Positions 9,001-64,000 of a stretch of DNA of 64,000 nucleotides are shown here, piece after piece. Source of the stretch: Botryllus schlosseri (taxonomy: Eukaryota); contig CM119372.1 of NCBI GenBank assembly GCA_051294905.1, positions 34,412,001-34,476,000 of the forward strand. Reading direction: 5' to 3'. Below the pieces are notes generated by a model that saw nothing but the letters and a program-made list of their open reading frames with translations, ran no database searches and had not been told where the DNA came from. The position numbers and the translations under genes were made by a program. Each line of letters opens with the position of its first letter. Positions within the stretch are counted from its first letter, which is position 1.

Positions 9001-9065
9001 TTACAGAGTGTGAAAATATCACTTTAGGTATCGAGTACCAGTAGTAGTGGGTGAACAATACTTAA

Positions 9066-10009
9066 CCCTTACGAGGTGGGGCCATATTTTGCAGAATTGA
9101 CCTTCACTTTTCAAATTCTCACCGTTACCCCACCAGGACTTGAATCTGGGCCGTTCCAGTTTAAAAGTGGGCGGAGTATAGCCCTATACCGATTCCACTC
9201 TTGATCAACACCCCATGACATGCCTGAGGTTTTTTAATAAGTTTAAATAAACAAGCTTTTCCCCCAAATAAATCTCTCTCTCTCTCAATTTTCAAGACTG
9301 ACCCTCAGGATGGCGTCAGAGAGAGGAATATGATGCTTCAGTGCGTAGCCACTGTTGCCTGGTTTCAAACAAGCCGTCAACCATGGTTGCAAGCCGCGCG
9401 GTTCGTCAGATATCGAAAAATGGGAAATACAGATAAAATTTAAAAATGGGCGTGGTCAGTGAGTGTTCATCAAGGTCAAGTTCATGATCAAGACTCAATC
9501 GGCCCCTACAGTCCGGTTTATGGCATAAAACAACGCGATATGCTTTCTTTTCTCATATCCAACCATTTGCAGGCATAGTAAACCGCTTTATGACTCATAT
9601 GCCGACTGAATTTGCACTTGAACTTGACCTAGATCTTAAAATTCACTGAAGCGTGACAAAAATTTACAAATCCCCCTCAGAAAACTCTCCAGAAAACGTT
9701 TTGATGTTTGAAACGGTGAAAATTTACACAGAAACCCGTACATGTCGACTTCTGATGTTCTGGCAGATTTTCCGACAATATTTCCCACTCGGAATATATC
9801 CGGAAGTTTTAGGTGATAGCCATATTTTATTTTATTTTTAATTTTTTGTTTATTTTTACAAACTAAAATTTTTGAGTAAGGTACCAAATACATCGGAAAA
9901 GTCTCAGCTTTTCAAAAAACGTAGTACCCGATGTCTAGGGCGTGTCAACATGGAGAAATCGGTGTCGGAGACATGCCATATCATATATGATACGCCCACC
10001 TCGTAAGGG
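9066..10009. mobile_element. piggyBac-type non-autonomous element inserted in copy B
   Basis: 15-bp TIRs CCCTTACGAGGTGGG / CCCACCTCGTAAGGG, each flanked by TTAA (9062-9065, 10010-10013). Confidence 0.9.
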
Positions 10010-12539: not shown

Positions 12540-13160
12540 TACCTACCCAAGTAAAATTACCATTTTCACCTGGAGGTCAGGCGTTACCAGAGCAAAAAAT
12601 ACCATTGTACTTTGGAGATTTATCGTTTACCCAGTGTAACAATACATTTTCACTTGAGGGTCTATCGTTTCCTAGAGTAACAAACCCCTTTTCCTTTGGA
12701 AATCTATTTTTTCCCTGGGTTACAAACCTTTTTCACTTGGAAATATATTTTTTCACCGGGTAACAAACCTTTTTCACTTGGAAATATATTTTTTCCCTGA
12801 ACAACAAACCTTTTTCACTTGGAAATATATTTTTTCTCTGGGTAACAAACCTTTTTAACTTGGAAATATATTTTTTCCCTGAGCAACAAACCATTTTCAC
12901 TTGGTGGGTCGTCGTTTACCTGAGTAAAAATATAATTTTCCTTTGGAGATCCGGCGTTTACCCAGTGTAACAAACCATTTTCACTTGGAAAAATACTTTT
13001 ACCTAGAGTAACTAATCATTTTCTTTTAGAAATATATTTTCTCCCTGGGTAACAAACCCTTTTCGTTTGGAAAACTATCATTTACCTGAGTACCAATACC
13101 GTTTTCACTTGGAAATCTATCTTTTCCCTGGGTAACAATACCATTTTCGTTTTGAAAACT
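12540..13160. repeat. 41-42 bp tandem array in copy B
   Basis: Units like CCTTTTTCACTTGGAAATATATTTTTTCTCTGGGTAACAAA, with degenerate outer units. Confidence 0.9.
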
Positions 13161-13845
13161 GACAACCACACCGGGCAATTTGATATTTTTATATATTGTT
13201 ACAACGGGTAGCGACAAAATATACACCAACAACAACTCCATACATTTGTGTAATCGCATATTCACTTGGTCTGATGCATCCCATCAAAATCCTCAGTTAC
13301 CCACCTGCAATGTGCTGTTGTACATCGATGTGTATGTTTTGGAAATTGGACAATAGATTTCGACATGTCTGTGATGTCCGGGTTCGTGCTTTGGATTTTC
13401 CAGAGTCAAAATGTCTGAATAAACACCTCCTCGACGATGGTTGGTACGTGGATAACGTTGTTCGGAAAACGGTTGGATTTATGTCACCCATCACGATAAC
13501 AATTCCGGGTCGAGTTTTCTCCCATATGTTTACTATATTGTGTCTTTGTTGGTCAATGTATGTCTCGACAGTCAGTTTGAAATCGGAAACCCTGATAAAG
13601 TACGTAACCGGATCCGGATATCTACCCTGAATCGATAAACCAACGAACACTATTCAAAGTAAACATGTTACACCCTGTGTTTCCACGAAAAAATACCATC
13701 AAGACATACGTCGCGCTTGTTTGCCCACACCAGTATACGCGTAAATGGAGGTGTGTGACATTGCATGCAATGTGTTGGTATACAAACATCGGGGAGTTAA
13801 CCGTCGAACCACAGACATTATCATAGCCGGTAATTTTGATGCAGA

Positions 13846-14960
13846 TCAAAGTAGGCTCTTTTAACAAGCACAGAAATTCAATTATCGAACACCGTTTACA
13901 AGACAATATTCTACATGGGTAGGCCTACATGTATTTTCACGGTTATTCGCAAAATGATAAACTAAAATTGGCATAAATGGAGGGGGGCTCATAAAATCAA
14001 AGTAAGCTCTATTAGCAGGTGCAAAAATTTAATGATCGACTACTGTTTATGGTACCATATTCTACATGGGTACATATATTTTCACGGTTACTCGTAAAAT
14101 GACAACTAAAATTCGCATAAATGTAAGGGGGGGGGGGCTCATAAAATCAAAGTAAGCTCTTTTAGCAGATGCAGAAATTTAATGATCGACTGTTTACGGT
14201 ACCATATTCTACATCGGTACATACGTTTTCACGGTTATTCGCAAAATGATAACTAAAATTCGCATAAATGTAGGGGGGGGGGCTAATAAAATCGAAGTAA
14301 GCTCTTTAAGCGGATGCAGAAATTCAATGATCGACTACTGTTTACGGTACGATATGCTACATGGGTACATGTATTTTCACGGTTATTCGTAAAATGATAA
14401 CCAAAAATCGCGTAAATGAAGAAGGGGCCCCCCTCATAAAATCAAAGTAAGCTTTTAGCAGGTGCAGTAATTTAATGATTGACTTCTGTGTGCGGTATTA
14501 CATTCTACATGGGTACATGTATTTTCAGTTATTTGCAAAATGATAACATTTGCGTATATGTAGGAGGGGGGCCCTTTAGCTAAAGGCAAAATAGATAGAG
14601 ATCATCACATCAAAGTGAGCTCTTGCAACTAGCGCAGAAATTTAATGATCGACTACTGCTTACGGTACCATATTCGAAATTGGCGCATGGATTTTTGTGG
14701 TTATTCGTAAAATGATTACTAAAAAATGAGATTTGATGATTGACCTGTCTTTACGGTACACTACCATATTCTTTATGGATACAAGGATTCCGCGGTTATT
14801 CAGAAAATGGTAATACTTAAAAAAAAAGCTCGTAAACCGGAGAAATAGTTGGAAAAAGCGCGTAAACCGAGGAGGGGGGGGGGGGTCTCGAAAGCGCGTA
14901 AATCAACCAGGGGGGGCCCTAGGCGACCGCCTACCTCGCCTACCCCAAAAGCCACCACTG
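13846..14960. repeat. ~145-165 bp tandem array (~6 units), probably internal to a non-autonomous DNA transposon ending ...CCACCACTG at 14960
   Basis: ATCAAAGTAAGCTCT-like motif recurs at ~13846, 13996, 14146, 14291, 14441 and 14609. Confidence 0.8.
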
Positions 14961-41643: not shown

Positions 41644-44600
41644 GTCTATGGTATATTCACTATATTGTGTTGATTTACGAAATAATTTCGGATCGCCTAC
41701 GATCTTTGTACATTTTGAAAAAACTTGTGAGTAGTATATACGATCGCTCGCATGACGCAATGGGTTTCTTATGGGCCCGCTCGCACATCGTATTGAAAAC
41801 TCGTGTTGGCATATCGTACTTTTAGACCCCCCCTATCGCTCGCACATCGTAATGTGTTCTTATGGGTGCGCTCGCACATCGTACTTTCAAGTATAGGCTG
41901 CGGCGGTGACTCGTATTGAAAACTCGTGTTGGTATATCGTACTTTCGGGTGTAGGCATCTCTCGCACATCGTACTTTCGCATGTCGTACTTTCGCGTATA
42001 GGCTGTGTTGGTGATTCGCTATGTGTTCTTATGGTCGCGTCGGCATATCGTACTTTCGGGTGTAGGCATCTCTCGCACATCGTACTTTCGCATGCCGTAC
42101 TTTCGCGTATAGGCTGTGTTGGTGATTCGCTATGTGTTCTTATGGGTGCGGTCGTGATTCGTACTTTCAGGCATCTCTCGCGCGGTGTTGAATAGTCACC
42201 AACAATAACCACACAAACGGAAACGTGGCTCGTTGTGAGGATTAAGCAGTGCGACCTATATTTCGAATGACCTGCGCGCTGAATTGTTTCACGGCCAACC
42301 GCGTGCTACTATCGATTATTACACTATTCCATTCAGTGCGAAATAGTTTGCTAAATCTAGGAGTCACTTCCGAGGTAATATTTTGGTAATTAGTTTACCA
42401 CAGAGTCGGCGTAGACGGCGATTCGAATATCAACAATAACCACGTTCACAAACTAACACTTCAAAAATGTGTGAAATAGTTTACAAAACCCCGCGATCGC
42501 TGACGAGATAATGTCTCGGACATAACCATCTTTCGCGACTTGGTGTTACAGGCATATCGATCGCTCACGCGGTGAAATATTCGTAGGCATCACTCGCAGA
42601 ATTATATTTTGGTAATTATTTTGTCACAGAACCGGTGTAGACGGTGATTCCAACACCAACAATAACCATGCACACAAACTAACACTTCAAAAAGGGTGTG
42701 AAATAGTTTGCAAAACCCCGCGATCGCTGACAAGATAATGTCTCGGTCATAACCATCTTTCACGACTTGGTGTTACAGGCATATTGATCGCTCACGCGGT
42801 GAAATTTTAGTAATCAGTTTGTCACAGAACTTGATATCGCTGGTAAGATTTAACAAGTAACGAATAACAGACCGCCAGTGTCGGTAACTTGAATAGCGAC
42901 AAATTGTCACTTATTTCCGCTCTAACCCTAATCCTCTGTGAAGTGAACGCTTATTCAAAAGGGTGTGATAATTTTAAAATCCGACGACCACTCACCGGAT
43001 AATGCTTCAGACATAGCAATCCCTCATACCCGCTCACAAGGTAATATTTCGGTAATTAGTTTGTCACAGAACCGTCGCAGGCGGTGATTCGAAAACCAAC
43101 AATTTGTCACTCGCCCGCGATCGCTATATGTTTCACGCCTCCAGAATAGTGGCTGACTTTAGTTGCGTGATAAGATCCATGAAAATATTCAATCAATGTG
43201 TTAGTTTATCAACTTGAAATGAAACTCACTACACAAATCAAGTCGATTCGTATCTGAATGTTCTAAATCGGTACAACTCTAATCCTTTGACAAATCCCTT
43301 AACGCGTTTTTGTTGAATCGAACGTAACCCGAATATTACTGACGCCGACTTTCAGCCGCATTGAATTATTCGCACATTCGCCGCTGTTTTCACACTTATA
43401 GAATCAATACCAACTATAACTCTACAAGAATCAAGAATCACAAGTATGTGCATTACACAGTTATTGTCTTTATTAACTTGAAATCAAACACTTAACAAAA
43501 ACACGCAACTAATCATTTGGCAACTCTAGCATTACCAAAAAAATTCCAGTATTGTTGATTGAAAATCCTTGAGTCATTATTATCAAAAATGTTATAGTAC
43601 CGCATCGGAATCCATTCGCGGGATGTACTAAAGGTAAATCCAGATAATCCAAAATGAAATATTTGGTCTTTGACAAACATGACTACTAACTTTGATCCAG
43701 TCACATTTCAAGATTATACTTTGAAACAATCCTTGAAACTTAAATCTCTATTCACGACTGAGTTTTCCGTTTGTCAGTTTCAGTAAATACTATCGCGATA
43801 TTTTAATGTGTTACTACACACAATAGAATCATTCAATGAAATAGCACCTGTTGTAAATATTTCTAACTTGACAACCACTTGTGCATACCGCGATCGACTT
43901 GTGACGCGATGAGTTAAATCGGAATATTTCAATCTATTTCTCGAAACCTTGAACAAGCTATCGGGTTATTTTTTTTGTTGTAATCGAGTGAACGGAAATA
44001 GTATTACGTCTCAACATTTTAACATCTTCCCATACACAAAAGAGTAAAATACAAAAAACCTTGTCAAGTCAATCCGTTTGTAACTTACCCAACCAAAGCA
44101 AAAAGTATCCTTATGAAAAGTAGACAAGACTACGCGAGTAATCACCACAATCCAAAATCCATAGCAAGTTCGGTTGTATTCATAGTCCACCAACTCGTAC
44201 TTTTATTCAACTGTAAAAGTCGTTACTATTCCGCAAGACAAAGAAATTACTATGTGGTATATTTTGTAAGACAAAAGTAATTACTTCTCGGTGTCGGCGA
44301 CTTGAGATTAACATATGTTTTGAGTATATGATATTTGAATGTCTGACCAACGTAGTTAAGAATTCATTTTATACGATCGAACACCGGTATTACATTGAAA
44401 GTTATCATGCTGTAAACATAAGGATTGACACATGGATTTGACATATGTAATAGTTGATCATGGCTTGATTATTAAATTATTCGCGTTAATTAGACCCGGC
44501 GTTGCGGTAAAGGTTATTATGACAGCAACAAACTTTTCACCGCCGTGGTTATTAACATATTGATTTGTAAAACTATACTTGTCTGAAATGTTCTTGGTTT

Positions 44601-46739
44601 GAAAGATATTCCGTGTTGGTACAAATCACTCTGTGTATTACGGATATCAGAAAATATTTTTACAAATGTAGTTGTTTCCAGTAACCAAGACTAAAGATGA
44701 CACAACAATTTCGTTTGGAATATCTTTACTGGACGCATCCTATTCTACTAGACTTGAGTAATACACAAAACTCATAGCATTAACAAAATCGCAATAGGCG
44801 CTACACTGAAATCTACAAAATGTGTTTGTATTGTTACTCAAAGTAGTGATCATAAATTATCATTTAAATAAGTAATTGTAATCATAAAACCAAACTTGTG
44901 AAAGTCATTACCATAACAAAAGAATATTGTAGGTTGCTTGCTAAATGTATGCCGGAAATATTTGTAGAACGCTCACGACCAAAGAAATCGGAAATTTCTC
45001 CCCATTGTCATTCGTCAAAGTATATGTTGTCACAATACTCATCCCGTAAAAGATCTTACTTGTATGTGATTGAATCGCCGGTAATTAACTCGCTAAATCA
45101 AACCATAAGGAAATTTCACTCAGTCATCGGATTATGATATTAAACAGCGTCGCTTAATCGGCATAGAGCGTTTTTCTAAATGCAAATCATACCTGACCAA
45201 CAGAAAACAATTTTCACTCACCTCGTAATGAAACCAAGTGGTGGGCCTACGTTCAATATTTTGTTTGTGTCAAATACTTTGCAATAAACACACACACTGG
45301 AGTGGTTGAGCTTTACATCATCAAGCTGTCATCTGTAAATCGAGATCACATCCGACTTGTAACTGTATCGTTTACCTAACCGAGTTGTATGCACAGTTTC
45401 ATATTTTTATCATTTAGTGATTGCTGAACATACCAAACGATACACATTCACTTCCGAAATACTGCGTTGATCTCAATTCCCTTTGTCGTGATAACCGAAG
45501 TACATTTGTTTCGAATTCGTAACAGCCGACTTTTCTATGACACGATAAATTTTGACAAGTTATGCTTAGAAGATTGGTTGCATATCGCGAAAAATAACAT
45601 ACTGCTCATATTGATACCGTTAATCGGTATTTTCACGCGAGTCGATTTTCAAATGAGTAAAATTTATTACATGAGTTTCTCCGCTTAATGTAAATGAAAA
45701 CTCAGTCGTCTTTTAACATCACATAGACATTGATAAAAAGTAAGTAAGCAATCAAACACAACACTTTGTACGACACTAATTATTGTTCCACACATCTCAT
45801 TTCATACTAAGTGTATACGAAAGATATTCATGTTACACGAAAATATTCGCTCATGCTACAAACCTGTACAATGATTGGTGGTGTAAGTCCAGCACAATTG
45901 TGGTATCCACACGAGTTTAGTTAACACAATTTACGACACCGAGGTCGCCTCATCTTTCGTAAGACAACAAACCAAGGCTTCAGGATATGTCCATGTCATA
46001 ACAATAAATCAACTACTCCAACAACAGAATACATATGTTTTCTAGCACGGTGCTTACATCTTACACACAAATCAACCAACTTTGCTAACGAAAAGCGCTG
46101 AGTCATCACATGGTTGTCCTCACAACAATACAACTAAAACATACTATCATACAAAATGGCCGTTATAGTTTGCACACCAACGATACATCGTACAAGTAGC
46201 AAGTCTCGAGAATCCAGTTATTCAAAAAAACGTGAAAGTGTTTCTACGCCAAGTCGGTATGTTGACGATAGCATATATTGTAATATCATGATCGATTTAC
46301 ATTCGTTGGTCACAAAATGTCACTACTCTAAATAATTATTTTTCACTCAAAGCCTACTTGTCACCATTCGTTTCATCAAGCACGAGTTCAAGAAACCTGC
46401 TACGACATGAATTGTTATTTTTATGTTGTGTAAATAGGTAATAATTAATTTTAGTAACACTATATCAACATCATCGAGTTGCGTGAATAGATTTACATGT
46501 GGTCTTGTGGTTTTAATCGAAGTATACAGCACGGTCTAATGTAGAGTCATCTCTACTGTACAGCAACTCGGTAATCGAAATGCATTAAAATTTAAACAAC
46601 GATCTTGTTTCGTCGCACCAAAAATATGTTTACTATCGCGATACTCTGCACAGGCCGTGTAAATCCTTTTCACACTCGTAATAGTATACCAACAGCTACC
46701 GGCGACAACGTTTAACAATACCAACAACACTAAACATAC

Positions 46740-47440
46740 GATACCTACCCAAGTAAAATTACCATTTTCACCTAGAGGTCGGTCGTTACCCGAGTAGAAA
46801 TACCATTGTCCTTTGGAGATTTATCGTTTACCCAGTGTAACAAACCTTTTTCCCTTGGAAATATATTTTTTCTCTTGGTAACTAACCTTTTTCACTTGGA
46901 AATCTATTTTTGTCCTGGATAACAAACCTTTTCACTTGGAAATATATTTTTTCTCTTGGTAACAAACCTTTTTCACTTGGAAATATATTTTTTCTCTGGT
47001 TAACAAACCTTTTTCACTTGGAAATATATTTTTTCTCTGGTTAACAAACCTTTTTCACTTGGAAATATATTTTTTCTCTGGTTAACAAACCTTTTTCACT
47101 TGGAAATATATTTTTTCTCTGGGTAACAAACCTTTTTCACTTGGAAATATATTTTTTCCCCGGGTAACAAACCTTTTTCCCTGAGCAACAAACCATTTTC
47201 ACTTGGTGGTTCGTCGTTTACCCGAGTAAAAATATCATTTTCTTTTGGAGATCCGGCGTTTACCCAGTGTAACAATACATTTTCACTTGGAAAAATACTT
47301 TTACCTAGAGTAACTAATCATTTTCTCCTGGGTAACAAACCCTTTTCGTCTGGAAACTATCATTTACCTGAGTACCAATACCGTTTTCACTTGGAAATCT
47401 ATCTTTTCCCTGGGTAACAATACCATTTTCGTTTTAAAAA
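46740..47440. repeat. 41-42 bp tandem array, copy C left arm (mirror at ~49875-50495)
   Basis: Same unit as in copies B and D. Confidence 0.9.
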
Positions 47441-48217
47441 CTGACAACCACACCGGTCAATTTGATACTTTTTGTATATTGTTACAACAGACAGCGACAA
47501 AATATACACCAACAACGACTCCGATACATTTGTCTAATCAAATATTCACTTGCTCTGATGCATCCCATCAAAATCATTGGTTACTCACATACAATAACAA
47601 CGTGCTGTTGTACATCGACATGTATGTTTTCGGAATTGGTGAATAAAGGGGTTTCCGATATGTCCGTGATGTCCGGGTTCGTGCTTTGGATTTTCCAGAG
47701 TCAAAATGTCTGAATAAAACACCTCCTCGACTTTGGTAACTGGTTGATACACGGATAATGGTGTTTGGAAAACGGATGAATTTTTGTTCCCCATCGCGCT
47801 GACAACATCGGGTACTTGTGAGTTTCCTCGGGTCTGTTTACTATATTGTGTCTTTACTGGTCAATACATGTCGCTCCAGTCAGCTGAAACCGGATCACTA
47901 ATATGAGAAAGTGTGGGGGCCGGATCCGGATATTCACTCATGACCCAACGACCGATATTCAAGTAAACATGTTACCGACCGTGTTTTGTCTCCATGAAAA
48001 ATACCTATGCATACACCATCACATCAAGTACGTCACGATTGTTCACAAGTATTTGCGTAAACGAGGTGTATGTACAATGTGTCGATGCACAAACATCATG
48101 GGACACAAATTCACGTTCTCAAGTCTCATCATGCGCCGACTCTGTACATTCAATGTGGGCATAGATGACTTGGAGACATGATACAATGGATAGTGCATTA
48201 TGCATACCGATATATTC

Positions 48218-48496
48218 TCAGTCAAATATGCGACCCATACACATCCATATACCCTGATTTTCGCTGAATATCCACAACACCAACAAATCTGTACATTTCT
48301 TTTCCCCTGACCTCGACGATAGAGTTGTCATCCCAATGTACCAATCGAGTGTATGGTTCATCAGGTGAAAATCCAAATCAAATGTCGCCAAGGTATCGTT
48401 TTTCATTTTCAATATTTCCACCGCTGCATCTTTTCTGTGTCGTAAAACCACGGTGTGAGGCCAGAGGAATCTATGGAACGTTACGCGTAATCCCAT
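48218..48496 (-). pseudogene. Central-spacer gene of unknown function in copy C (1-bp frameshift)
   Basis: Peptide homologous to 57623-57918; frame restored by adding one T in GATTTTCA. Confidence 0.6.
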
Positions 48497-51490
48497 AATT
48501 ACTCGGGGATATAGTCAGGTAACGACAACGTTTTCTCAGTGGTCTGCGTGGGTGCACCGTTTCAATACGTAGCTGGATCAACTAGACCAAAAGTTTCCAA
48601 CCACGTTTTATAACGGCATGTAGAATTACGAGACAGCACCCTCTTGCGGAGTGGTTAACACGAAATCAGTCTTCAACCCACAGAGACACACCTCGGATTA
48701 CATTATCTAATCGTATTCGAACTCGAGATTCACACACACACAGAGTCCCTGTTTACGATTTCAATCCGGAGTCACTGCTCACGATGTTTAGCTGGAGTCG
48801 TTGTGTGGGAGTAGCAACATCGGGCATATTCATCACCTGCAAGATTGATAACGATGGTGATCGCCAAATACCGAAAACCAGGTGAAACACTGCGGTCTCA
48901 GCAAAAAGTTCGCAGGTTAGGACGAACAATACGTGGAGGGATTGAGCGAGTTACGCAACCCGATTATGTCGAAGTCTAGATCACGATACAAGTCTACCTG
49001 AGAATCCGAACAATCTTGCAAAATCAAGGTGTGAACCCGTGAAAGGGCTGTACTCGTGTGAGATGTATTTTTCACAAGTTGGGTGGAGGTCGGTTCATAC
49101 TAAGACCATGTTACGTCCAAATATGACCGCTTGCCTGTCTCCAAGTCATCTATGCCCACATTGAATGTACAGAGTCGGCGCATGATGAGACTTGAGAACG
49201 TGAATTTGTGTCCCATGATGTTTGTGCATCGACACATTGTACATACACCTCGTTTACGCAAATACTTGTGAACAATCGTGACGTACTTGATGTGATGGTG
49301 TATGCATAGGTATTTTTCATGGAGACAAAACACGGTCTGTAACATGTTTACTTGAATATCGGTCGTTGGGTCATGAGTGAATATCCGGATCCGGCCCCCA
49401 CACTTTCTCATATTAGTGATCCGGTTTCAGCTGACTGGAGCGACATGTATTGACCAGTAAAGACACAATATAGTAAACAGACCCGAGGAAACTCACAAGT
49501 ACCCGATGTTGTCAGCGCGATGGGGAACATAAATTCATCCGTTTTCCAAACACCATTATCCGTGTATCAACCAGTTACCAAAGTCGAGGAGGTGTTTTAT
49601 TCAGACATTTTGACTCTGGAAAATCCAAAGCACGAACCCGGACATCACGGACATATCGGAAACCCCTTTATTCACCAATTCCGAAAACATACATGTCGAT
49701 GTACAACAGCACGTTGTTATTGTATGTGAGTAACCAATGATTTTGATGGGATGCATCAGAGCAAGTGAATATTTGATTAGACAAATGTATCGGAGTCGTT
49801 GTTGGTGTATATTTTGTCGCTGTCTGTTGTAACAATATACAAAAAATATCAAATTGACCGGTGTGGTTGTCAGTTTTTAAAACGAAAATGGTATTGTTAC
49901 CCAGGGAAAAGATAGATTTCCAAGTGAAAACGGTATTGGTACTCAGGTAAATGATAGTTTCCAGACGAAAGGGGTTTGTTACCCAGGAGAAAATGATTAG
50001 TTACTCTAGGTAAAAGTATTTTTCCAAGTGAAAATGTATTGTTACACTGGGTAAACGCCGGATCTCCAAAAGAAAATGATATTTTTACTCGGGTAAACGA
50101 CGGACCACCAAGTGAAAATGGTTTGTTGCTCAGGGAAAAAGGTTTGTTACCCGGGGAAAAAATATATTTCCAAGTGAAAAAGGTTTGTTACCCAGAGAAA
50201 AAATATATTTCCAAGTGAAAAAGGTTTGTTAACCAGAGAAAAAATATATTTCCAAGTGAAAAAGGTTTGTTACCAAGAGAAAAAATATATTTCCAAGTGA
50301 AAAAGGTTTGTTATCCAGGACAAAAATAGATTTCCAAGTGAAAAAGGTTAGTTACCAAGAGAAAAAATATATTTCCAAGGGAAAAAGGTTTGTTACACTG
50401 GGTAAACGATAAATCTCCAAAGGACAATGGTATTTCTACTCGGGTAACGACCGACCTCTAGGTGAAAATGGTAATTTTACTTGGGTAGGTATCGTATGTT
50501 TAGTGTTGTTGGTATTGTTAAACGTTGTCGCCGGTAGCTGTTGGTATACTATTACGAGTGTGAAAAGGATTTACACGGCCTGTGCAGAGTATCGCGATAG
50601 TAAACATAAGTAGTTATATAGATCGGTCAACCGGTGGCAGGGGTTCTTATGGGCGGGGTCGCATGCTAACGAGAAACCGGGGGTGGCATGCTAACGTTTT
50701 CGTCTTATGGCGGGGGTGGCATGCTAACGTTTTCGTCTTATGGGTGCGGTCGCATGATAACGCGAAACTCGTGGTGGCATGCTAATGTTTTTTGGTATAC
50801 GTGCGGCGACATGCTAACGACGATAAATGTGTCTGTCATGTATTCTTACGGGATCTGTGGCGACTCGCCATGTGTTCTTATGGGCGCGGTCGTGATTCGT
50901 ACTTTCAGGCATCTCTCGCGCGTTGTTGAATATGTATCAAGTAAATAGTCATGCGAATGAATCTTTGTTAATGTGTATATCGTTATTCTTATGGACGCGG
51001 CGATGATTCGTACTTTCGAGTATAGACATCTCTCGCGTGGTGTTGAATATGTACGAGTCACCAACAATAACCGCGCGGACGGAAACGTGGTTTGTTGTGA
51101 GGATTACGCGTGCGACCTATATTTCGAATGACCTGCGCGCTGACTTATTTCTCGTCTAGTCGCTACTATCGATTATTACACTAGACCGGTCAGTGTGAAA
51201 TAGTTTGATCGTAAATTATGATATATGATGTCGTAGTTTAGTCGTATCAAATGACCGATCGTGTTCTCTCTTTCCTCGCTATTGATTGCTAGCTGAATAA
51301 TACTTTCGGCTTATTCGCTGTTTCGCGCGTACAAAATAGTCTGCTGTTCACAGTCTCAACTTCATCGCGATAGCACAATTTTCACACCTCGATCAGTAGA
51401 ACAACACCGCACTAACGCAGTTGGCGAATCACATAGGTCATACATTTTACGCGAAATGAAATATTGTATTGTGGTATACAAATATGCAAA

Positions 51491-52126
51491 CTATTCTTTC
51501 AATTCAACAAGTCTAGTTAACGAATCGATTTTCAAGCTGCCGACACAGTTTTTAACACGAGTGAGTTGATATTTCTTCCCGGGTACGAGCGAGGCTTTGT
51601 TCCATTGATCCAAAACCACCTCACCAGTATCATCCTTCAATGTAAAACTGTATAATTTCAACTCCTTTCCGGCCCCAGAATTGACCATCTTCTCCTCTCG
51701 AGAAACACAAGTAGCGGCGATCGAAACGTATTCATCTTTATTCCCGTATACCGATTCGCAGGTCAATAATGGGTATTCTTCAGTCGTATGTCTCGATTTT
51801 CCATGCGTGGTTACTGACGAAGCCCGTCCCAGTAATACAGCAGGTTTTCCAGTAAACTTGTCAATTTGGACCCAACCGGATTTGACCATGAGTTTTTTTC
51901 GTTTGGAGAATGCTTTCTCAATGACCCCGAACAATTCACGATTGAAACACGTGAAAGATATCTCTTCGTTATTACCGTCGATGAATATACCTTTGAGATA
52001 TTGGCTAACGCCACCTCTTTTGGGTGATGAGACGAATTTGACGCCGACGTGAAAATTTGAAGTTGCTCCGACTTGCATAGTGTTGACGCTGTTCGATGCC
52101 ATATCGTTTGATAAAGTGGGAGTCAT
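51491..52126 (-). CDS. Tandem OB-fold protein (RPA/SSB-like ssDNA-binding), 211 aa
   Basis: Intact intronless ORF. C-terminal half YVSIAATCVS...KLYSFTLKDDTGEVVLDQWN...PGKKYQLTRVK fits the RPA-type OB pattern. N-terminal half (FIDGNNEEISFTCF) looks like a second OB fold. Confidence 0.7.
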   Translation of the reverse strand: MTPTLSNDMASNSVNTMQVGATSNFHVGVKFVSSPKRGGVSQYLKGIFIDGNNEEISFTCFNRELFGVIEKAFSKRKKLMVKSGWVQIDKFTGKPAVLLGRASSVTTHGKSRHTTEEYPLLTCESVYGNKDEYVSIAATCVSREEKMVNSGAGKELKLYSFTLKDDTGEVVLDQWNKASLVPGKKYQLTRVKNCVGSLKIDSLTRLVELKE

Positions 52127-55100
52127 CAGTGTAACTCACTACACAAATCAAGTTGAATCGTATTTGAATGTATTGATTCGACCCAACTCAAATCCTTTGA
52201 CAAATCCTATTAACGCGATCTGTTGAATCGAACGTAACCTGAATATTACTGACGCCAACATTCACCCGCATCGGATCATTCACACATTCCACGTCGGTGT
52301 TTTAACACTTATAGAATCAATACCAACTATCTCTAACCCGATAATATTCAATCATTTTGGTAATTTGCCAACTTTAAATCCATTCGCGGGATGTACTAAA
52401 GGTAAATCCAAATAATCCAGAATGAAATATTTGGACTTCGACATTGCGTGAATTGAAATAGGTTTGACAAACATGACTACCAACTTTCACCCAGTCACAT
52501 TTCAAGATTATACTTTGAAACAATCCTTGAAACTGACAACTCTATTCACGACTCCGTTTCCGTTTGTAAAATAGAGTTTCAGAAATACTATCACTATGAC
52601 AACTCAACATTTTAACATCTCACCATGCAGAAACGAGTTAAATACAAAAACCTTGGTAAGTCAATCCGTTTGTAGTAACTCACCAAACCAAAACAAAAAG
52701 TGTCCGTATGAAAAGTAGACAAGACTACGCGAGTAATCACTACAACCCACAAACATACCAACTCAGTTGTATCCATATCCCATATTTTTTATTCAACTGT
52801 AACATGAAGTAATTACTACTTGGCGCGCGGTTTGAGATTAACACATTACATTTGAGTATACGAGATTTGAATGTCTGACCAACGTAGTTGAGAATTCTTA
52901 CAATCGAACGATGGTGTTATATTCAAAGTTATCATGCTGTGAACATAAGGATTGACGCATTGATTTGACATATGAGATTTGTAATAGTTGATCATTACTT
53001 GATTATTAAATTATGACATTATTAGACCAGGGTTGTGTTGAAGGTTATTACGATACCAACAAACTTTTCAGAAACATTGTTATTAACATATCGATTTGTA
53101 AAACTAGATTAACATGTCTGAAATGTTTTGGTTGGGAAGATTATGCCGTGTTCGTAAAAACCACGCAGCGTATTGTGGAAATCAGGAAATAATTTACAAA
53201 TGTAATTGTCTCCAGTAACCAAGACTAAAGATGAAACAACAATTTTCTTTGTTGAACAATAACCGGTATAATACTTTATCGTCGTAATCTGCGGTGGGAA
53301 TTGAAACACTTTCGCACATTTCCCGGTGTCAAGATATCACACTAGGTGAATTGACATATCGCCGCTTGATTAATGCTTAATCCGTTCGCGCCATTTCACA
53401 CACTTTGATCATTACAAAAAACAAATTGGAATATGTTTGCTATATGCATTCAATTCGGTTAGAAATGTCTGGTACACAACAATCGTAATATCAATGAAGT
53501 ACTTGCTACACTGTAATTCACTTAACGTGTTTTGCATTGTTGATCATTTGTAGTATTGATTGTTTTTGAACCCCCGAATAATAATTCCCCGACATGAAAC
53601 CAAACCGTTGAAAGTCGTTACCATCACAACGAAACAATTTGTACGATGTTTGCTAAATGTATCCTATAGTTAGGTGTACTAGAATTATTTGTCTAACACA
53701 TACACCGACAATGCAATCGAAAATTTTTCCGTTGTCATTGCTAGAGTAAATGTCATCACAATACTCTGTCACTAAAAGACGTTACTTGTATGTGATTGAA
53801 TCCCTAACAATTATCTCACTAAACCGAACTCCAAAGAAATTTTACTCACTCGACGGATATGAAACAGCGTCGCTTAATCGGTCTATATCGTTTTTCTAAA
53901 GGTAAATCATATCCATCCAATAGAAAACAATTTTCACTAGCTTGGTAATGAAACCGAAGTCTTCAGTCGATATTTTGTTTGTGTCAAATACTTTGTAATA
54001 AACACATTTGAGTGGTTGAGCTTTACATCATCAAGCTGTCATCTGTAAATCGAGATTACATCCGACTTGTAACTCTATCGTTTAACTAACCGAGTTGTAT
54101 GCACAGTTTGATATTTTGGTCATTTAGTGATTGCTGAACATACCAAACGATGCACACCCACCGCCGAAATACTGCGTTGATCTTAATTTCCATCATCGTG
54201 ATAATCGAAGTACATTTCTTTCGAATTCGTAACAACCGACTACGACATGATAAATTTTTGACAAGTTTACTTAGAAGGTTTGTTGCATATCGCGAAAAAT
54301 AATATACCACTCATATTGATACTGTTACTTCATTGATCGATATTTTTAAACGAGTAAAATTTATTACTTGAGTTTCTCCGCTTAATGTAAATGTAAACTC
54401 AGTCGTCTTTTAACATCACAAATACATTGATAAAAAGTAGGCAATCAAACACAACACTTTGTACGACACTAATTATTGTTCCACACATCTCATTTCATAC
54501 TAAGTGTATACGAAAGATATTCACGACACATGAAAATATTCGCTCATGCTACGAACATACGCAATGATTGGTGGTGCTTTCAAACTGTTTCGATATCACA
54601 AGAACTTTATTGTCTGAATGGGTGTTCATGTATCTTAATAATCAAATAGTTCAACACAGAACTAGTACTAACAGAAACATCAGAGAGTTGTTTACACAAA
54701 AGTTTGTATGTGTACAGTATGCGAATACCATGTGTAAGTCCAGCACAATTGCAGTATCCATCCGAGTTTAGTCAACACAAATTTATTACAACGGAGCCAC
54801 GTAAACTTTCGTGAAAGAAAAGCATACTCACTTCCAGAGGGTTATGTCAACACCATAGCAGTAAATCAGCTACTCCAACAACAAAGTACATATGTTTCTA
54901 GCCACGATCCTTACATCTTTCACATAGATCAATCTAGTTTGCTAACGAAATGTGCTGAGTCATCACACGATTGCCCTCACAACAAAACAGCTAGAAGATA
55001 TTATCATACAAAAATATTCCTAACCCTTTGCGCACCAGTGACAAATCATACAACAAACATTTTTTGTGAGGTGAATTGTTGTTCAGTGTCAAGTCTACCT

Positions 55101-55709
55101 GTTGAAACGTACATTAAAACAACACAGTCACAATTCAATTAAAACCACGAATCTATTTTCATTTCGTCACATACAGAAAAATAAATTTTCTTTCCCGAAC
55201 ACATACTTGTAACCAATCGCTTTCATTAAACACACATCTCCATAAAAGTATTTACTTTCTACAGCATAGACAGTCCGATGTAGTCAAGAAATATTTTTAT
55301 TAATCAAAATCATCGATTTCTGTTCACGGCGTTAGTGTGTGCATGTCATACCTGTGGGCCCCGTATTAAAATGGACAAGACACGACTGAATGTAAGGGGG
55401 TAGAAGTCTATCACATCGATTTACATGTGGTCCTCGCTACGGTTTCAAAAAACGAATCATATATTTTGCATTGGTCGAGACCGAGCGAACCAGTTACATG
55501 TATTCGCGGTAATGATTTTGCTTGTCATATGCGAATGATAGGGTTGCTACTCCGACAAATCAAATCAACATACAACAATCTTCTGACGATCATAATAGCA
55601 ATTTCATTTTCCACCCCTTCGTAACTGTATACCCACGAAAAGTATATGGTACAACTCGGTAACTACGTTTAACAAGACCAATCACACTACCAGCGTTGAA
55701 CACAAGATA

Positions 55710-56365
55710 CCTACCCAAGTAAAAATATCATTCTGGTTTGGACAACTGACGTTTACCTGTGTAAAACTATCATTTTCACTTGGAGGTCCACCGTTACCTA
55801 ACTAAAATACCATTGTCCTTTGGAGATTTATCGTTTACCCAGTGTAACAATCCCCTTTTCCTTTGGAAATATATTTTTTTCTCTGGGTAACAAACTTTTT
55901 CACTTGGAAATATATTTTTTTCCCTGGATAACAATCCTTTTTCACTTGGAAATATATTTTTTCCCTGGATAACAATCCTTTTTCACTTGGAAATATATTT
56001 TTTCTCTGGGTAACAAACCTTTTTCACTTGGAAATATATTTTTTCCCTGGATAACAATCCTTTTTCACTTGGAAATATATTTTTTCTCTGGGTAACAAAC
56101 CTTTTTCACTTGGAAATATATTTTTTCTCTTGGTAATAAACCTTTTTCACTTGGAAATATATTTTTTCTCTGAGTAACAAACCTTTTTCACTTGGGAATA
56201 TATTTTTTCTCTGGATAACAAACCATTTTCACTTGGTGGGTCGTCGTTTACCTTAGTAAAAATATTATTTTCCTTTGGAGATCCGGCGTTTACCCAGGGT
56301 AACAATACATTTTCTCTTGTCCATCTAGCTTTTCCCAGAGTAACAAAACCATTTTCATTTTGAAA
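55710..56365. repeat. 41-42 bp tandem array, copy D left arm (mirror at ~58763-59335, two units shorter)
   Basis: Same unit as in copies B and C. Confidence 0.9.
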
Positions 56366-57622
56366 TCTGACAAACACACCTGACAATTTGGTATTTGTTG
56401 TATTGACGATAGTTTGAAATAGATTACAACGAACAGTGACGGAAATATACACGGACTACCGGTTTCAGAGTATACCTCCATCAGTCGTATCACATCAATA
56501 TCATCGGTTAACCACATACAATATGCTCTTGTACACAGAAATGTATGTTCTGGAAAATTGGACAATAGGCTTCGATAGTTCTGTGATGTCCGGGTTCGTG
56601 CTTTGGATTTTCCAGAGTCAAAATGTCTGAATAAAACACCTCCTCGACGAAGGTTGGTATGTGGATAACGGTGTTCGGAAAACGGTTGGATTTATGTCAC
56701 CCATCGCGATAACAATTCCGAGTCGAGTTTTCTCCCGCATGTTTACTATATTGTGTCTTTATTGGTCAATGTATGTCTCGACATTCAGTTTGAAATCCGA
56801 AACCCTGATAAAGTATGTAACCGGATCCGGATATCAACTCTGAATCGATAAACCAATGAACAATATTCAAAGTAAACATGTTACACCCTGTGTTTCCACG
56901 AAAAAATACCATCCAGACATACGTCGCGCTTGTTTGCCCACACCAGTATACGCGTAAATGGAGGGGTGTGACATTGCATGCAATGTGTTGGTATACAAAC
57001 ATCGATCCACAGACATTATCATAGCCGGTAGTTTTGATGTAGATCGAATGTTATCACACCCGATAACAATACCAATAAGCCACATTGCAATGACTCTGAG
57101 TCTGCGCTATTACATCGATATTTCGACACCGTTCACTGATTTACTCGATGGTGTTATCGTGTTGTAACATTACAAGATAGTCATGACCCTATCTCCGGAC
57201 AGATCACCCAGACCAATTGGATACATCGGTCGATATCCATCGTGTTGTCGACACCGAAGTTTTCTGCTGAGACTGCAGCGTTTGACCAATGTGAACTATC
57301 GAAGTACGGTGCTCGAAATGATTGCAATCAGTCTTTCATTCACGATGCATGGACATCGCTACTCCCACATAACGACTCCAAATAAATATCGTGCAAATCT
57401 CGGACTGATACTGTGATCCAATAAGGTGTGTTTCTGTGGAATGAAGACTGCAATCGTACACCACAATAGAACACTACCTCGTGATTTCACACGCAAGCAT
57501 ATTACACACTTTCGTAAGGGTCTAGTTCGTCCGGCGACATTTCGAAACGGTCATCGCCACAGGAGATCGAGGTTGGTCTCGTCATATCGAAGCATTTTGA
57601 AACTGTCATCACCACAAGGCTA

Positions 57623-57918
57623 TTGACGTCGATTCTGTTGGTCATGTCAATCCGTTTCACAATCCACCGTTTTTCAACTCCCCGCACCATAGTGTTACGA
57701 CACAGACAAGAAGCGTCGGTGGAAATAATAAAACACGGAAAGCACACTTTGGTGTTATTTGACATGGATTTTACACCAGACGAACCTTACATTCGAGCGA
57801 TGCATTGGAATGACGCTTGTATTATTGACGTAGAAGGAACAGAAATGTATCGATTTATTGGTTTCGTACATATCCAACAAAAAGCTGGTATATGATTGTG
57901 CACGGTTCGCATATTTGA
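57623..57918 (+). pseudogene. Central-spacer gene of unknown function in copy D (1-bp frameshift near C-terminus)
   Basis: RFTIHRFSTPRTIVLRHRQEASVEIIK...DFTPDEPYIRAMHWND...EMYRFIGFV matches the copy C spacer peptide. Confidence 0.6.
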
Positions 57919-60900
57919 CTGTGAACGCAATATTGATATATGTTGTAAAGTTCACTTTCACCGTTGTGCGAATAACCCATGTTACGGTTCCATGTTTGTG
58001 TGTCTGTATGTCCTGCTTCAGATTGATTCAGAGTCATTGCAATGTGGCTTATTGGTATTGTTATCGGGTGTGATAACATTCGATCTACATCAAAACTACC
58101 GGCTATGATAATGTCTGTGGATCGATGTTTGTATACCAACACATTGCATGCAATGTCACACCCCTCCATTTACGCGTATACTGGTGTGGGCAAACAAGCG
58201 CGACGTATGTCTGGATGGTATTTTTTCGTGGAAACACAGGGTGTAACATGTTTACTTTGAATATTGTTCATTGGTTTATCGATTCAGAGTTGATATCCGG
58301 ATCCGGTTACATACTTTATCAGGGTTTCGGATTTCAAACTGAATGTCGAGACATACATTGACCAATAAAGACACAATATAGTAAACATGCGGGAGAAAAC
58401 TCGACTCGGAATTGTTATCGCGATGGGTGACATAAATCCAACCGTTTTCCGAACACCGTTATCCACATACCAACCTTCGTCGAGGAGGTGTTTTATTCAG
58501 ACATTTTGACTCTGGAAAATCCAAAGCACGAACCCGGACATCACAGAACTATCGAAGCCTATTGTCCAATTTTCCAGAACATACATTTCTGTGTACAAGA
58601 GCATATTGTATGTGGTTAACCGATGATATTGATGTGATACGACTGATGGAGGTATACTCTGAAACCGGTAGTCCGTGTATATTTCCGTCACTGTTCGTTG
58701 TAATCTATTTCAAACTATCGTCAATACAACAAATACCAAATTGTCAGGTGTGTTTGTCAGATTTCAAAATGAAAATGGTTTTGTTACTCTGGGAAAAGCT
58801 AGATGGACAAGAGAAAATGTATTGTTACCCTGGGTAAACGCCGGATCTCCAAAGGAAAATAATATTTTTACTAAGGTAAACGACGACCCACCAAGTGAAA
58901 ATGGTTTGTTATCCAGAGAAAAAATATATTCCCAAGTGAAAAAGGTTTGTTACCCAGAGAAAAAATATATTTCCAAGTGAAAAAGGATTGTTATCCAGGG
59001 AAAAAATATATTTCCAAGTGAAAAAGGTTTGTTACCCAGAGAAAAAATATATTTCCAAGTGAAAAAGGATTGTTATCCAGGGAAAAAATATATTTCCAAG
59101 TGAAAAAGGATTGTTATCCAGGGAAAAAATATATTTCCAAGTGAAAAAGTTTGTTACCCAGAGAAAAAAATATATTTCCAAAGGAAAAGGGGATTGTTAC
59201 ACTGGGTAAACGATAAATCTCCAAAGGACAATGGTATTTTAGTTAGGTAACGGTGGACCTCCAAGTGAAAATGATAGTTTTACACAGGTAAACGTCAGTT
59301 GTCCAAACCAGAATGATATTTTTACTTGGGTAGGTATCTTGTGTTCAACGCTGGTAGTGTGATTGGTCTTGTTAAACGTAGTTACCGAGTTGTACCATAT
59401 ACTTTTCGTGGGTATACAGTTACGAAGGGGTGGAAAATGAAATTGCTATTATGATCGTCAGAAGATTGTTGTATGTTGATTTGATTTGTCGGAGTAGCAA
59501 CCCTATCATTCGCATATGACAAGCAAAATCATTACCGCGAATACATGTAACTGGTTCGCTCGGTCTCGACCAATGCAAAATATATGATTCGTTTTTTGAA
59601 ACCGTAGCGAGGACCACATGTAAATCGATGTGATAGACTTCTACCCCCTTACATTCAGTCGTGTCTTGTCCATTTTAATACGGGGCCCACAGGTATGACA
59701 TGCACACACTAACGCCGTGAACAGAAATCGATGATTTTGATTAATAAAAATATTTCTTGACTACATCGGACTGTCTATGCTGTAGAAAGTAAATACTTTT
59801 ATGGAGATGTGTGTTTAATGAAAGCGATTGGTTACAAGTATGTGTTCGGGAAAGAAAATTTATTTTTCTGTATGTGACGAAATGAAAATAGATTCGTGGT
59901 TTTAATTGAATTGTGACTGTGTTGTTTTAATGTACGTTTCAACAGGTAGACTTGACACTGAACAACAATTCACCTCACAAAAAATGTTTGTTGTATGATT
60001 TGTCACTGGTGCGCAAAGGGTTAGGAATATTTTTGTATGATAATATCTTCTAGCTGTTTTGTTGTGAGGGCAATCGTGTGATGACTCAGCACATTTCGTT
60101 AGCAAACTAGATTGATCTATGTGAAAGATGTAAGGATCGTGGCTAGAAACATATGTACTTTGTTGTTGGAGTAGCTGATTTACTGCTATGGTGTTGACAT
60201 AACCCTCTGGAAGTGAGTATGCTTTTCTTTCACGAAAGTTTACGTGGCTCCGTTGTAATAAATTTGTGTTGACTAAACTCGGATGGATACTGCAATTGTG
60301 CTGGACTTACACATGGTATTCGCATACTGTACACATACAAACTTTTGTGTAAACAACTCTCTGATGTTTCTGTTAGTACTAGTTCTGTGTTGAACTATTT
60401 GATTATTAAGATACATGAACACCCATTCAGACAATAAAGTTCTTGTGATATCGAAACAGTTTGAAAGCACCACCAATCATTGCGTATGTTCGTAGCATGA
60501 GCGAATATTTTCATGTGTCGTGAATATCTTTCGTATACACTTAGTATGAAATGAGATGTGTGGAACAATAATTAGTGTCGTACAAAGTGTTGTGTTTGAT
60601 TGCCTACTTTTTATCAATGTATTTGTGATGTTAAAAGACGACTGAGTTTACATTTACATTAAGCGGAGAAACTCAAGTAATAAATTTTACTCGTTTAAAA
60701 ATATCGATCAATGAAGTAACAGTATCAATATGAGTGGTATATTATTTTTCGCGATATGCAACAAACCTTCTAAGTAAACTTGTCAAAAATTTATCATGTC
60801 GTAGTCGGTTGTTACGAATTCGAAAGAAATGTACTTCGATTATCACGATGATGGAAATTAAGATCAACGCAGTATTTCGGCGGTGGGTGTGCATCGTTTG

Positions 60901-62916
60901 GTATGTTCAGCAATCACTAAATGACCAAAATATCAAACTGTGCATACAACTCGGTTAGTTAAACGATAGAGTTACAAGTCGGATGTAATCTCGATTTACA
61001 GATGACAGCTTGATGATGTAAAGCTCAACCACTCAAATGTGTTTATTACAAAGTATTTGACACAAACAAAATATCGACTGAAGACTTCGGTTTCATTACC
61101 AAGCTAGTGAAAATTGTTTTCTATTGGATGGATATGATTTACCTTTAGAAAAACGATATAGACCGATTAAGCGACGCTGTTTCATATCCGTCGAGTGAGT
61201 AAAATTTCTTTGGAGTTCGGTTTAGTGAGATAATTGTTAGGGATTCAATCACATACAAGTAACGTCTTTTAGTGACAGAGTATTGTGATGACATTTACTC
61301 TAGCAATGACAACGGAAAATTTTCGATTGCATTGTCGGTGTATGTGTTAGACAAATAATTCTAGTACACCTAACTATAGGATACATTTAGCAAACATCGT
61401 ACAAATTGTTTCGTTGTGATGGTAACGACTTTCAACGGTTTGGTTTCATGTCGGGGAATTATTATTCGGGGGTTCAAAAACAATCAATACTACAAATGAT
61501 CAACAATGCAAAACACGTTAAGTGAATTACAGTGTAGCAAGTACTTCATTGATATTACGATTGTTGTGTACCAGACATTTCTAACCGAATTGAATGCATA
61601 TAGCAAACATATTCCAATTTGTTTTTTGTAATGATCAAAGTGTGTGAAATGGCGCGAACGGATTAAGCATTAATCAAGCGGCGATATGTCAATTCACCTA
61701 GTGTGATATCTTGACACCGGGAAATGTGCGAAAGTGTTTCAATTCCCACCGCAGATTACGACGATAAAGTATTATACCGGTTATTGTTCAACAAAGAAAA
61801 TTGTTGTTTCATCTTTAGTCTTGGTTACTGGAGACAATTACATTTGTAAATTATTTCCTGATTTCCACAATACGCTGCGTGGTTTTTACGAACACGGCAT
61901 AATCTTCCCAACCAAAACATTTCAGACATGTTAATCTAGTTTTACAAATCGATATGTTAATAACAATGTTTCTGAAAAGTTTGTTGGTATCGTAATAACC
62001 TTCAACACAACCCTGGTCTAATAATGTCATAATTTAATAATCAAGTAATGATCAACTATTACAAATCTCATATGTCAAATCAATGCGTCAATCCTTATGT
62101 TCACAGCATGATAACTTTGAATATAACACCATCGTTCGATTGTAAGAATTCTCAACTACGTTGGTCAGACATTCAAATCTCGTATACTCAAATGTAATGT
62201 GTTAATCTCAAACCGCGCGCCAAGTAGTAATTACTTCATGTTACAGTTGAATAAAAAATATGGGATATGGATACAACTGAGTTGGTATGTTTGTGGGTTG
62301 TAGTGATTACTCGCGTAGTCTTGTCTACTTTTCATACGGACACTTTTTGTTTTGGTTTGGTGAGTTACTACAAACGGATTGACTTACCAAGGTTTTTGTA
62401 TTTAACTCGTTTCTGCATGGTGAGATGTTAAAATGTTGAGTTGTCATAGTGATAGTATTTCTGAAACTCTATTTTACAAACGGAAACGGAGTCGTGAATA
62501 GAGTTGTCAGTTTCAAGGATTGTTTCAAAGTATAATCTTGAAATGTGACTGGGTGAAAGTTGGTAGTCATGTTTGTCAAACCTATTTCAATTCACGCAAT
62601 GTCGAAGTCCAAATATTTCATTCTGGATTATTTGGATTTACCTTTAGTACATCCCGCGAATGGATTTAAAGTTGGCAAATTACCAAAATGATTGAATATT
62701 ATCGGGTTAGAGATAGTTGGTATTGATTCTATAAGTGTTAAAACACCGACGTGGAATGTGTGAATGATCCGATGCGGGTGAATGTTGGCGTCAGTAATAT
62801 TCAGGTTACGTTCGATTCAACAGATCGCGTTAATAGGATTTGTCAAAGGATTTGAGTTGGGTCGAATCAATACATTCAAATACGATTCAACTTGATTTGT
62901 GTAGTGAGTTACACTG

Positions 62917-63552
62917 ATGACTCCCACTTTATCAAACGATATGGCATCGAACAGCGTCAACACTATGCAAGTCGGAGCAACTTCAAATTTTCACGTCGGC
63001 GTCAAATTCGTCTCATCACCCAAAAGAGGTGGCGTTAGCCAATATCTCAAAGGTATATTCATCGACGGTAATAACGAAGAGATATCTTTCACGTGTTTCA
63101 ATCGTGAATTGTTCGGGGTCATTGAGAAAGCATTCTCCAAACGAAAAAAACTCATGGTCAAATCCGGTTGGGTCCAAATTGACAAGTTTACTGGAAAACC
63201 TGCTGTATTACTGGGACGGGCTTCGTCAGTAACCACGCATGGAAAATCGAGACATACGACTGAAGAATACCCATTATTGACCTGCGAATCGGTATACGGG
63301 AATAAAGATGAATACGTTTCGATCGCCGCTACTTGTGTTTCTCGAGAGGAGAAGATGGTCAATTCTGGGGCCGGAAAGGAGTTGAAATTATACAGTTTTA
63401 CATTGAAGGATGATACTGGTGAGGTGGTTTTGGATCAATGGAACAAAGCCTCGCTCGTACCCGGGAAGAAATATCAACTCACTCGTGTTAAAAACTGTGT
63501 CGGCAGCTTGAAAATCGATTCGTTAACTAGACTTGTTGAATTGAAAGAATAG
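62917..63552 (+). CDS. Tandem OB-fold protein, identical mirror copy of 51491-52126
   Basis: Identical 211-aa translation. Confidence 0.7.
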   Translation: MTPTLSNDMASNSVNTMQVGATSNFHVGVKFVSSPKRGGVSQYLKGIFIDGNNEEISFTCFNRELFGVIEKAFSKRKKLMVKSGWVQIDKFTGKPAVLLGRASSVTTHGKSRHTTEEYPLLTCESVYGNKDEYVSIAATCVSREEKMVNSGAGKELKLYSFTLKDDTGEVVLDQWNKASLVPGKKYQLTRVKNCVGSLKIDSLTRLVELKE

Positions 63553-64000
63553 TTTGCATATTTGTATACCACAATACAATATTTCATTTCGCGTAAAATG
63601 TATGACCTATGTGATTCGCCAACTGCGTTAGTGCGGTGTTGTTCTACTGATCGAGGTGTGAAAATTGTGCTATCGCGATGAAGTTGAGACTGTGAACAGC
63701 AGACTATTTTGTACGCGCGAAACAGCGAATAAGCCGAAAGTATTATTCAGCTAGCAATCAATAGCGAGGAAAGAGAGAACACGATCGGTCATTTGATACG
63801 ACTAAACTACGACATCATATATCATAATTTACGATCAAACTATTTCACACTGACCGGTCTAGTGTAATAATCGATAGTAGCGACTAGACGAGAAATAAGT
63901 CAGCGCGCAGGTCATTCGAAATATAGGTCGCACGCGTAATCCTCACAACAAACCACGTTTCCGTCCGCGCGGTTATTGTTGGTGACTCGTACATATTCAA

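Follow-up and report, generated by a model that had tools for sequence, protein, structure and literature searches.

The available text of one survey of Maverick/Polinton elements gives 5'-(AGT)2 as their commonest end motif, with (AG)3 as the alternative, and records intact vertebrate copies of 12.7-24.6 kb with terminal inverted repeats (TIRs) of 46-1,447 bp (PMC8097293). In the Polinton model, as the accessible part of another source outlines it, an extrachromosomal single strand forms a racket that is copied by the protein-primed polymerase (PMC4196379). The nearest printed case in the excerpts at hand is that of butterfly polintons, in which TIRs of ~2 kb carry genes and derivatives lacking polB are still mobile (bioRxiv 10.1101/2025.02.07.637071). 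In the TIRs of Streptomyces, according to a partly available account, one arm is recopied from the other, indels spread to both arms, and the repeat border moves (PMC7205883). In a 64,000-nucleotide stretch of Botryllus schlosseri DNA (assembly GCA_051294905.1, contig CM119372.1; the whole stretch is called the window), we find two diverged copies of a mobile element, C and D, each built from two ~6.5-kb near-identical inverted arms and a 0.9-1 kb loop with a small gene under selection.

Adenovirus panhandle end repair and the snap-back or copy-back defective genomes of viruses involve a single-stranded intermediate that is paired via inverted repeats. Such defective genomes are helper-dependent, carry two copies of one end and are transient by-products, whereas the family described here is old (synonymous divergence, dS, of ~0.95), diversified, and retains a selected gene. 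Foldback transposons such as FB, Galileo and TU have a P- or Mutator-type transposase between their arms, or matching termini and a 7-9 bp duplication.

Like Mavericks, C and D have 5'-(AGT)2 ends and TIRs, and the size extrapolated for D (13.8 kb) would fall within the 12.7-24.6 kb range, as far as the partly available sources report (PMC8097293; PMC6431247). However, their arms are ~6.5 kb long rather than 46-1,447 bp, ~93% of the element is palindrome, and the loop holds a small gene of no known family. Butterfly polintons, in the text available, also have TIRs grown enough to duplicate genes, as has happened here to an open reading frame (ORF) with a predicted OB fold, and some of their derivatives likewise stay mobile without the polymerase; they have, however, retained core genes and an extended unique middle, whereas the unique part here is <1 kb. 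The Streptomyces case, in the portion of the account at hand, concerns bacterial linear replicons and break-induced replication, in contrast to an integrated animal element whose arms were apparently reset at mobilisation. No whole-element palindromic Maverick derivative was found in the literature searched, which did not cover Repbase, subscription journals or supplements.

The loop, its gene and the fold-back points

Self-comparison of the window yielded four members of one element family, A to D (Table 1). C folds through pairing arms at 46625-48178 and 49136-50608 around a 957-nt spacer, and D through 51043-57102 and 58025-64000 around 922 nt (925 nt if the last three paired bases are counted as loop). 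An earlier note on this DNA, made from the letters alone, had proposed that the two spacers align over most of their length and that the palindrome is an inherited architecture. The homology is real: when the C spacer (reverse complement) is aligned with the D spacer, the local score is 166 against 22.4±2.4 for shuffles (maximum 41; 0/300 as high), whereas C(+) against D(+) scores 21 only, and all four shared motifs quoted in the note are present in the loops. Its extent is limited. Significant homology covers D 57262-57925, which is ~660 of 922 nt (72%; the note had given 928 nt for this spacer) and comprises a gene and a middle block, the latter scoring 321 against 91±15 (0/1000 shuffles as high). 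Alignment is no better than chance for the first 160-230 nt of the loops (121/1000 shuffles as high), for their 3' tails (101/1000) and for the last ~100 nt of the arms (318/1000).

Much of the shared segment is the gene, which the note had overlooked. Its ~91 codons are broken by one frameshift in each copy, near codon 44 in C and near codon 81 in D. Over 88 of the ~91 codons, with the break codons left out, 53 encode the same residue, and the two copies differ at 28 first, 16 second and 37 third positions. The loop gene is under purifying selection, with proportions of synonymous and non-synonymous differences (pS and pN) of 0.54 and 0.24, dS of 0.95 and a ratio of non-synonymous to synonymous divergence (dN/dS) of 0.31 (Fisher p 4e-5). 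Four of five control frames lack a synonymous excess; the fifth, a reverse frame that shares third positions, shows one (0.50 vs 0.27) but contains three stops.

A profile search returned five proteins of 90-93 aa without a name among 14 candidates, and unbroken homologues fall into five clusters that are mutually 62-75% identical. The clusters show an old, diversified family. The first 80 residues of the D gene are identical to database protein P0007, and the two unbroken pieces of the C gene match P0008 at 41/43 and 45/47 residues (86/90). A third database match, P0005, is a repetitive frame and was left out of the alignment. Seven of nine cluster members are on contigs of 922-1192 nt, a size that fits a unique loop between repeats; this is weak evidence, as contigs of ~1 kb are also typical of that collection.

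No family match for the loop protein emerged from a Pfam scan of the loop frames, and Atlas and PHROGs yielded nothing usable. Its structure model is poor (predicted local distance difference test, pLDDT, 50), and the best structural match, Pur-alpha (Z 6.6, root-mean-square deviation 2.1, 52 aligned), is within the chance range, so that this likeness is a lead only. Folding of the loops is unremarkable (z 0.56 and 0.49). As for a second ORF in the middle block, several frames fit its short conserved stretches and none is outstanding.

Because the DNA flanking the junctions does not align, the fold-back points can be compared only by their distance from anchors, and not base to base. These distances are 232 nt in C vs 162 nt in D on the 5' side and 43 vs 106 nt on the 3' side. 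The junctions are thus offset by 70 and 63 nt, and since the two shifts run opposite ways they leave loop length almost unchanged. The fold-back points had been placed ~40 and ~110 bp from a common CAGTCAAATATGCGA, and we measure 40 nt in C and 103-106 nt in D from the nearer junction. Under a uniform model over 2-7.4 kb, a crude one, junction agreement of this kind has a chance of 4e-3 to 3e-4.

Given the homologous loops, independent random artefacts are very unlikely, as the note had argued. Loop homology and arm identity, taken alone, are compatible both with a single inherited palindrome and with recurrent fold-back at a hot spot. In the latter case, non-palindromic parents in each lineage, made up of an arm, the loop gene and further sequence, would have folded independently and recently near the same place, and the arms would be identical simply as young copies, with no long-term homogenisation. 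The selected gene gives a reason of its own for the same segment to be kept and would favour fold-backs just beyond its stop; the junctions also differ on both sides amid unalignable flanks, and at the D left junction a perfect 5-bp hairpin (loop of 1 nt) might mark the site of a switch. By inspection, however, C has no such hairpin. Both free template-switch coordinates agree to 70 nt or less, the two loops are of matching length (922 vs 957), the window contains no copy in which the loop gene runs on into non-palindromic sequence, and the nearly gene-free arms fit a long-lived satellite better than a gene-carrying parent. We therefore regard repeated fold-back as rather improbable. An inherited palindrome is the more parsimonious account, which is as far as two copies can take the note's proposal.

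Arm identity and exchange between subfamilies

Arms are near-identical within each element and 20-30% diverged between elements. Those of D show 0 substitutions over 5973 positions, with two 1-bp homopolymer gaps and an 82-bp repeat-unit difference. Those of C have seven listed substitutions, two of which are part of a repeat-unit change, leaving five true ones in 1466 positions, plus an 81-bp repeat-unit difference. The 41-bp array of both elements is two units longer in the window-left arm than in the right one, though the loops point oppositely.

Over 689 gap-free columns of the inner arms, C-specific states occur in both arms at 105 sites and in one arm at 3, and D-specific states at 67 and 0, respectively. 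The total of 172 against 3 means that the two arms of an element parted from each other far more recently than C did from D (loop dS 0.95). This upholds, for the copies in the window, the observation in the note that arms stay alike within an element while subfamilies diverge.

D starts at the family terminus exactly where the right arm of C stops, and so lies inside a C arm and is the younger of the two. Arm differences are fewer in the younger D than in the older C (0/5973 vs 5/1466, p 3e-4), the order that nesting requires. Two of the five changes in C look derived on the right arm and three on the left (two polarised by eye). The arms thus look as if they were reset at insertion and then drifted apart, as long terminal repeats (LTRs) do. 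Because the older C gained substitutions on both arms, reset at mobilisation is favoured over continuous conversion in the chromosome.

The perfect identity of the D arms might also be read as a fold-back artefact of amplification, library preparation or assembly, all the more as the junctions are not directly confirmed in reads. We consider this very improbable. Two diverged copies fold at the same gene around loops of ~1 kb, their arms differ in repeat-unit number (by 81 and 82 bp) and, in C, also by substitutions on both arms, and D begins exactly at a family terminus within the C arm. In addition, three contig sets, each from a different study (one possibly the source of the window itself), contain multiple copies of arm and loop alike, and summed depth is higher on the arm than on the loop in two sets, with ratios of 4.2 and 1.7, which are not copy numbers. 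One of the contig sets containing family sequence is a seawater metagenome. No further loci were found in viral contigs with two DNA motifs and two protein queries, or in metagenome contigs with two protein queries.

Recombination has occurred between subfamilies. Before D position 56550, element B shows 91% likeness to C and 68% to D, against 75% and 94.5%, respectively, after it (maximum chi-square 111, 0/2000 permutations), so that B is C-like outside and D-like inside the breakpoint. Just inside it, a 50-nt block at 56583-56632 (+) is invariant in B, C and D, a pattern that makes it a candidate cis element. None of the data sets on record as containing the sequence was listed as RNA. In a raw RNA run, 165 of 22.2 million records were placed, 13 of them at at least 99%, which says nothing firm on expression. 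Depth in this run peaks (up to 58) at 56510-56619, mostly from other copies.

B ends ~50 nt short of the D fold-back point, at 13850, where it runs into a 148-bp tandem array (13845-14725), and is possibly a palindrome broken near its apex. No displaced loop was detected in the DNA downstream of B to 41700 (best scores 25-27, within the shuffle range). A short match of the B flank to the D tail (29/1000, one of 22 tests) was dismissed, as it sits in the unrelated 148-bp repeat.

Class membership and a possible replication cycle

The 5' ends read AGTAGT in A, C and D and AGTATT in B, next to four different flanks. Since the four ends are homologous, and only 5' ends are seen, they count as one observation of the Maverick motif. 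Inverted pairing extends over 5973 nt in D, with the outermost 434 nt of its right arm outside the window, and over 1466 nt in C. Arm lengths are alike (6448, 6494 and 6327 nt, the last for truncated B minus its insert), and the 13.8 kb to be set against the ~13-25 kb of Mavericks is extrapolated from the D left arm alone.

In contrast to Mavericks, A-D yielded no core gene (pPolB, integrase, ATPase, protease or capsid): 0 of 104 stop-free frames, of at least 58-62 aa, reached the Pfam cut-off in a scan that heavily decayed remnants may escape. Thus, these are not autonomous Mavericks. The arms have almost no intact genes, and the longest ORF in A-D is one of 211 aa in the D arms. Its model (pLDDT 70) predicts an RPA-like protein with two OB folds; the best Foldseek match is RPA70 (E 1e-8, with a low template-modelling score of 0.35), and baculovirus LEF-3 is among the viral matches. 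Neither B nor C has the ORF; in C, 870 nt of other sequence take the place of the 923 nt that it occupies in D. A homologue, P0004, is 26% identical and lies on a 12,767-nt contig. This RPA-like gene alone recalls Helitrons, whose ends, in the accessible part of the source, are 5'-TC and a 3' hairpin with a CTRR-type end, without TIRs (PMC4196379). Helitron membership was rejected, as the elements begin with AGT and carry giant TIRs.

A cut-and-paste foldback transposon (FB, Galileo, sea-urchin TU or Mutator-like) would account for the architecture if the transposase were encoded elsewhere and chromosomal gap repair or gene conversion kept the arms alike. Long inverted arms with internal tandem arrays (33-bp and 41-bp) around a gene-bearing loop do resemble foldback elements, the 104 frames hold no Maverick gene by Pfam, and a THAP-domain remnant lies 214 nt outside the A end. 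The THAP frame, however, lies beyond the element. The ends have the (AGT)2 motif of Mavericks rather than the termini of FB, Galileo or TU, the flanks of the ends contain no TA or TTAA target, and the arms are several times longer than those of FB, Galileo and TU. The Pfam scan of the loop frames gave no transposase or other family match, although non-autonomous copies would need no transposase. C also retains five substitutions across both arms, so that chromosomal conversion is slow at most. We judge a foldback transposon to be unlikely.

The reading we prefer, and think moderately probable, is that C and D are non-autonomous, Maverick-dependent satellites with an inherited palindrome that is homogenised during extrachromosomal replication. 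On this view, the palindrome likely descends from a single ancestor, every round of replication outside the chromosome likely renews the arms by copying between them, and a helper Maverick/Polinton probably supplies the polymerase and integrase. A displaced single strand might fold on itself as a racket, the paired arms forming a 6.5-kb stem and the loop staying single-stranded; with arms of this length, the strand would be almost entirely stem. Strand displacement as such would leave arm differences in place. If one arm were trimmed and re-extended on the other, or if mismatches in the stem were repaired, a change could become fixed in both arms, and the junction could also drift by tens of bases. 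The loop, having no partner to copy from, would alone gather uncorrected damage, such as the two frameshifts, and after integration the arms would diverge like retroelement LTRs. The unbroken ORF in the paired arms and the broken genes in both unpaired loops fit this mechanism, the cases being few. The panhandle-mediated copying invoked by the note is in keeping with the Maverick-type ends and remains an inference from them; nothing in the data shows it.

Several points weigh against this reading. The loop comparison has n=2, shared junction ancestry is not demonstrated as the flanking DNA does not align, and independent fold-backs might retain one and the same segment through selection on the loop gene alone. 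The identity of the D arms may have been inflated by polishing. B alone, as a recombinant, could explain all arm mosaicism and does not prove copying into both arms. Read placement listed nine joints, none of them strand-changing, and none of the 24 records shown of ~39,600 bridges a junction, which leaves the junctions unconfirmed by reads. No element has both its ends in the window, which puts the right terminus and the 6-bp target-site duplication of Mavericks outside its reach, and an autonomous helper with the same ends would lie elsewhere in the genome. A 10-nt match that would make the D loop tail an old arm-end remnant was rejected as not significant (160 and 470/1000 shuffles).

More tentatively, C and D might be integrated forms of a stable class of polintovirus satellites. 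Such a satellite would have a ~14-kb self-complementary, one-hairpin genome that is size-tuned to the helper capsid, with arms re-synthesised arm-from-arm each cycle, a conserved loop protein of its own and, in some subfamilies, an RPA-like gene for single-stranded DNA binding that hijacks helper replication. We regard this as possible, though less likely than not.

Other features of the window and implications

The four family members, one of them nested in another, take up ~48% of the 64 kb, an arrangement suggestive of local clustering of insertions. The background is repeat-rich animal DNA with Gypsy and THAP remnants, and Rfam gave 0 matches in the whole window. A THAP-domain frame at 2511-3053 (-; Pfam E 2e-15) lies between the back-to-back ends of A and B and is, from its sequence, probably the remnant of a P-like transposase. 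We rejected a reading of A and B as paired arms of a single element that carries the THAP frame, as their alignable parts are only ~75-82% alike and the D insertion shows the AGTAGT end to be an outer end. Within B, a piggyBac-like non-autonomous insert occupies 9062-10013, with 19-nt terminal repeats that include TTAA. Two Gypsy-like retroelement remnants (reverse transcriptase, RNase H, integrase) at 21807-29707 (-) share a 183-nt repeat at 21554 and 26503 (99%).

Table 1. Members of the palindromic element family and their parts, in window coordinates
Feature	Position	Strand	Remarks
Element A, outer 2.3 kb of fourth arm	1..2297	-	begins AGTAGTAGT; runs off window start
Element B, single arm	6576..13850	+	begins AGTATT; no loop and no second arm within window
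Element C, whole extent in window	41730-50608		from self-comparison
Element C, left arm (6.45 kb)	41730..48178	+	begins AGTAGT; subterminal repeats, 227-bp tandem pair, 41-bp array
Element C, 41-bp array, left vs right arm	46837-47179 vs 50135-50396
Element C, loop (957 nt)	48179..49135	-	homologous to D loop
Element C, loop gene	48222..48496	-
Element C, right arm	49136..50608	-	ends where D starts
Element D, left arm (6.49 kb)	50609..57102	+	begins AGTAGT
Element D, 33-bp subterminal repeats	50678-50762		left arm
OB-fold ORF (211 codons, unbroken)	51491..52126	-	D left arm; predicted two OB domains, RPA70-like
Element D, 41-bp array, left vs right arm	55844-56236 vs 58891-59188
Element D, loop (922 nt)	57103..58024	+
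D loop, conserved short blocks upstream of gene	57262..57560	+	candidate promoter, cis element or second decayed ORF
Element D, loop gene	57644-57918	+
Element D, right arm	58025..64000	-	continues beyond window; end extrapolated to ~64434
OB-fold ORF, second identical copy	62917..63552	+	D right arm

Giant palindromes are normally unstable and short-lived, whereas the architecture described here seems to persist across ~1 synonymous change per site in the loop gene. In practical terms, such elements may be taken for fold-back sequencing artefacts and dropped from assemblies. Should mobilisation indeed reset the arms, the family would be a natural record of the single-stranded racket intermediate, which for Polintons was put forward from bioinformatic evidence, and each insertion could be dated by its arm divergence as by an LTR-style clock. 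Such a family would also show that a virus-like element can give rise, through its snap-back by-products, to a lasting lineage of parasites that have their own genes.

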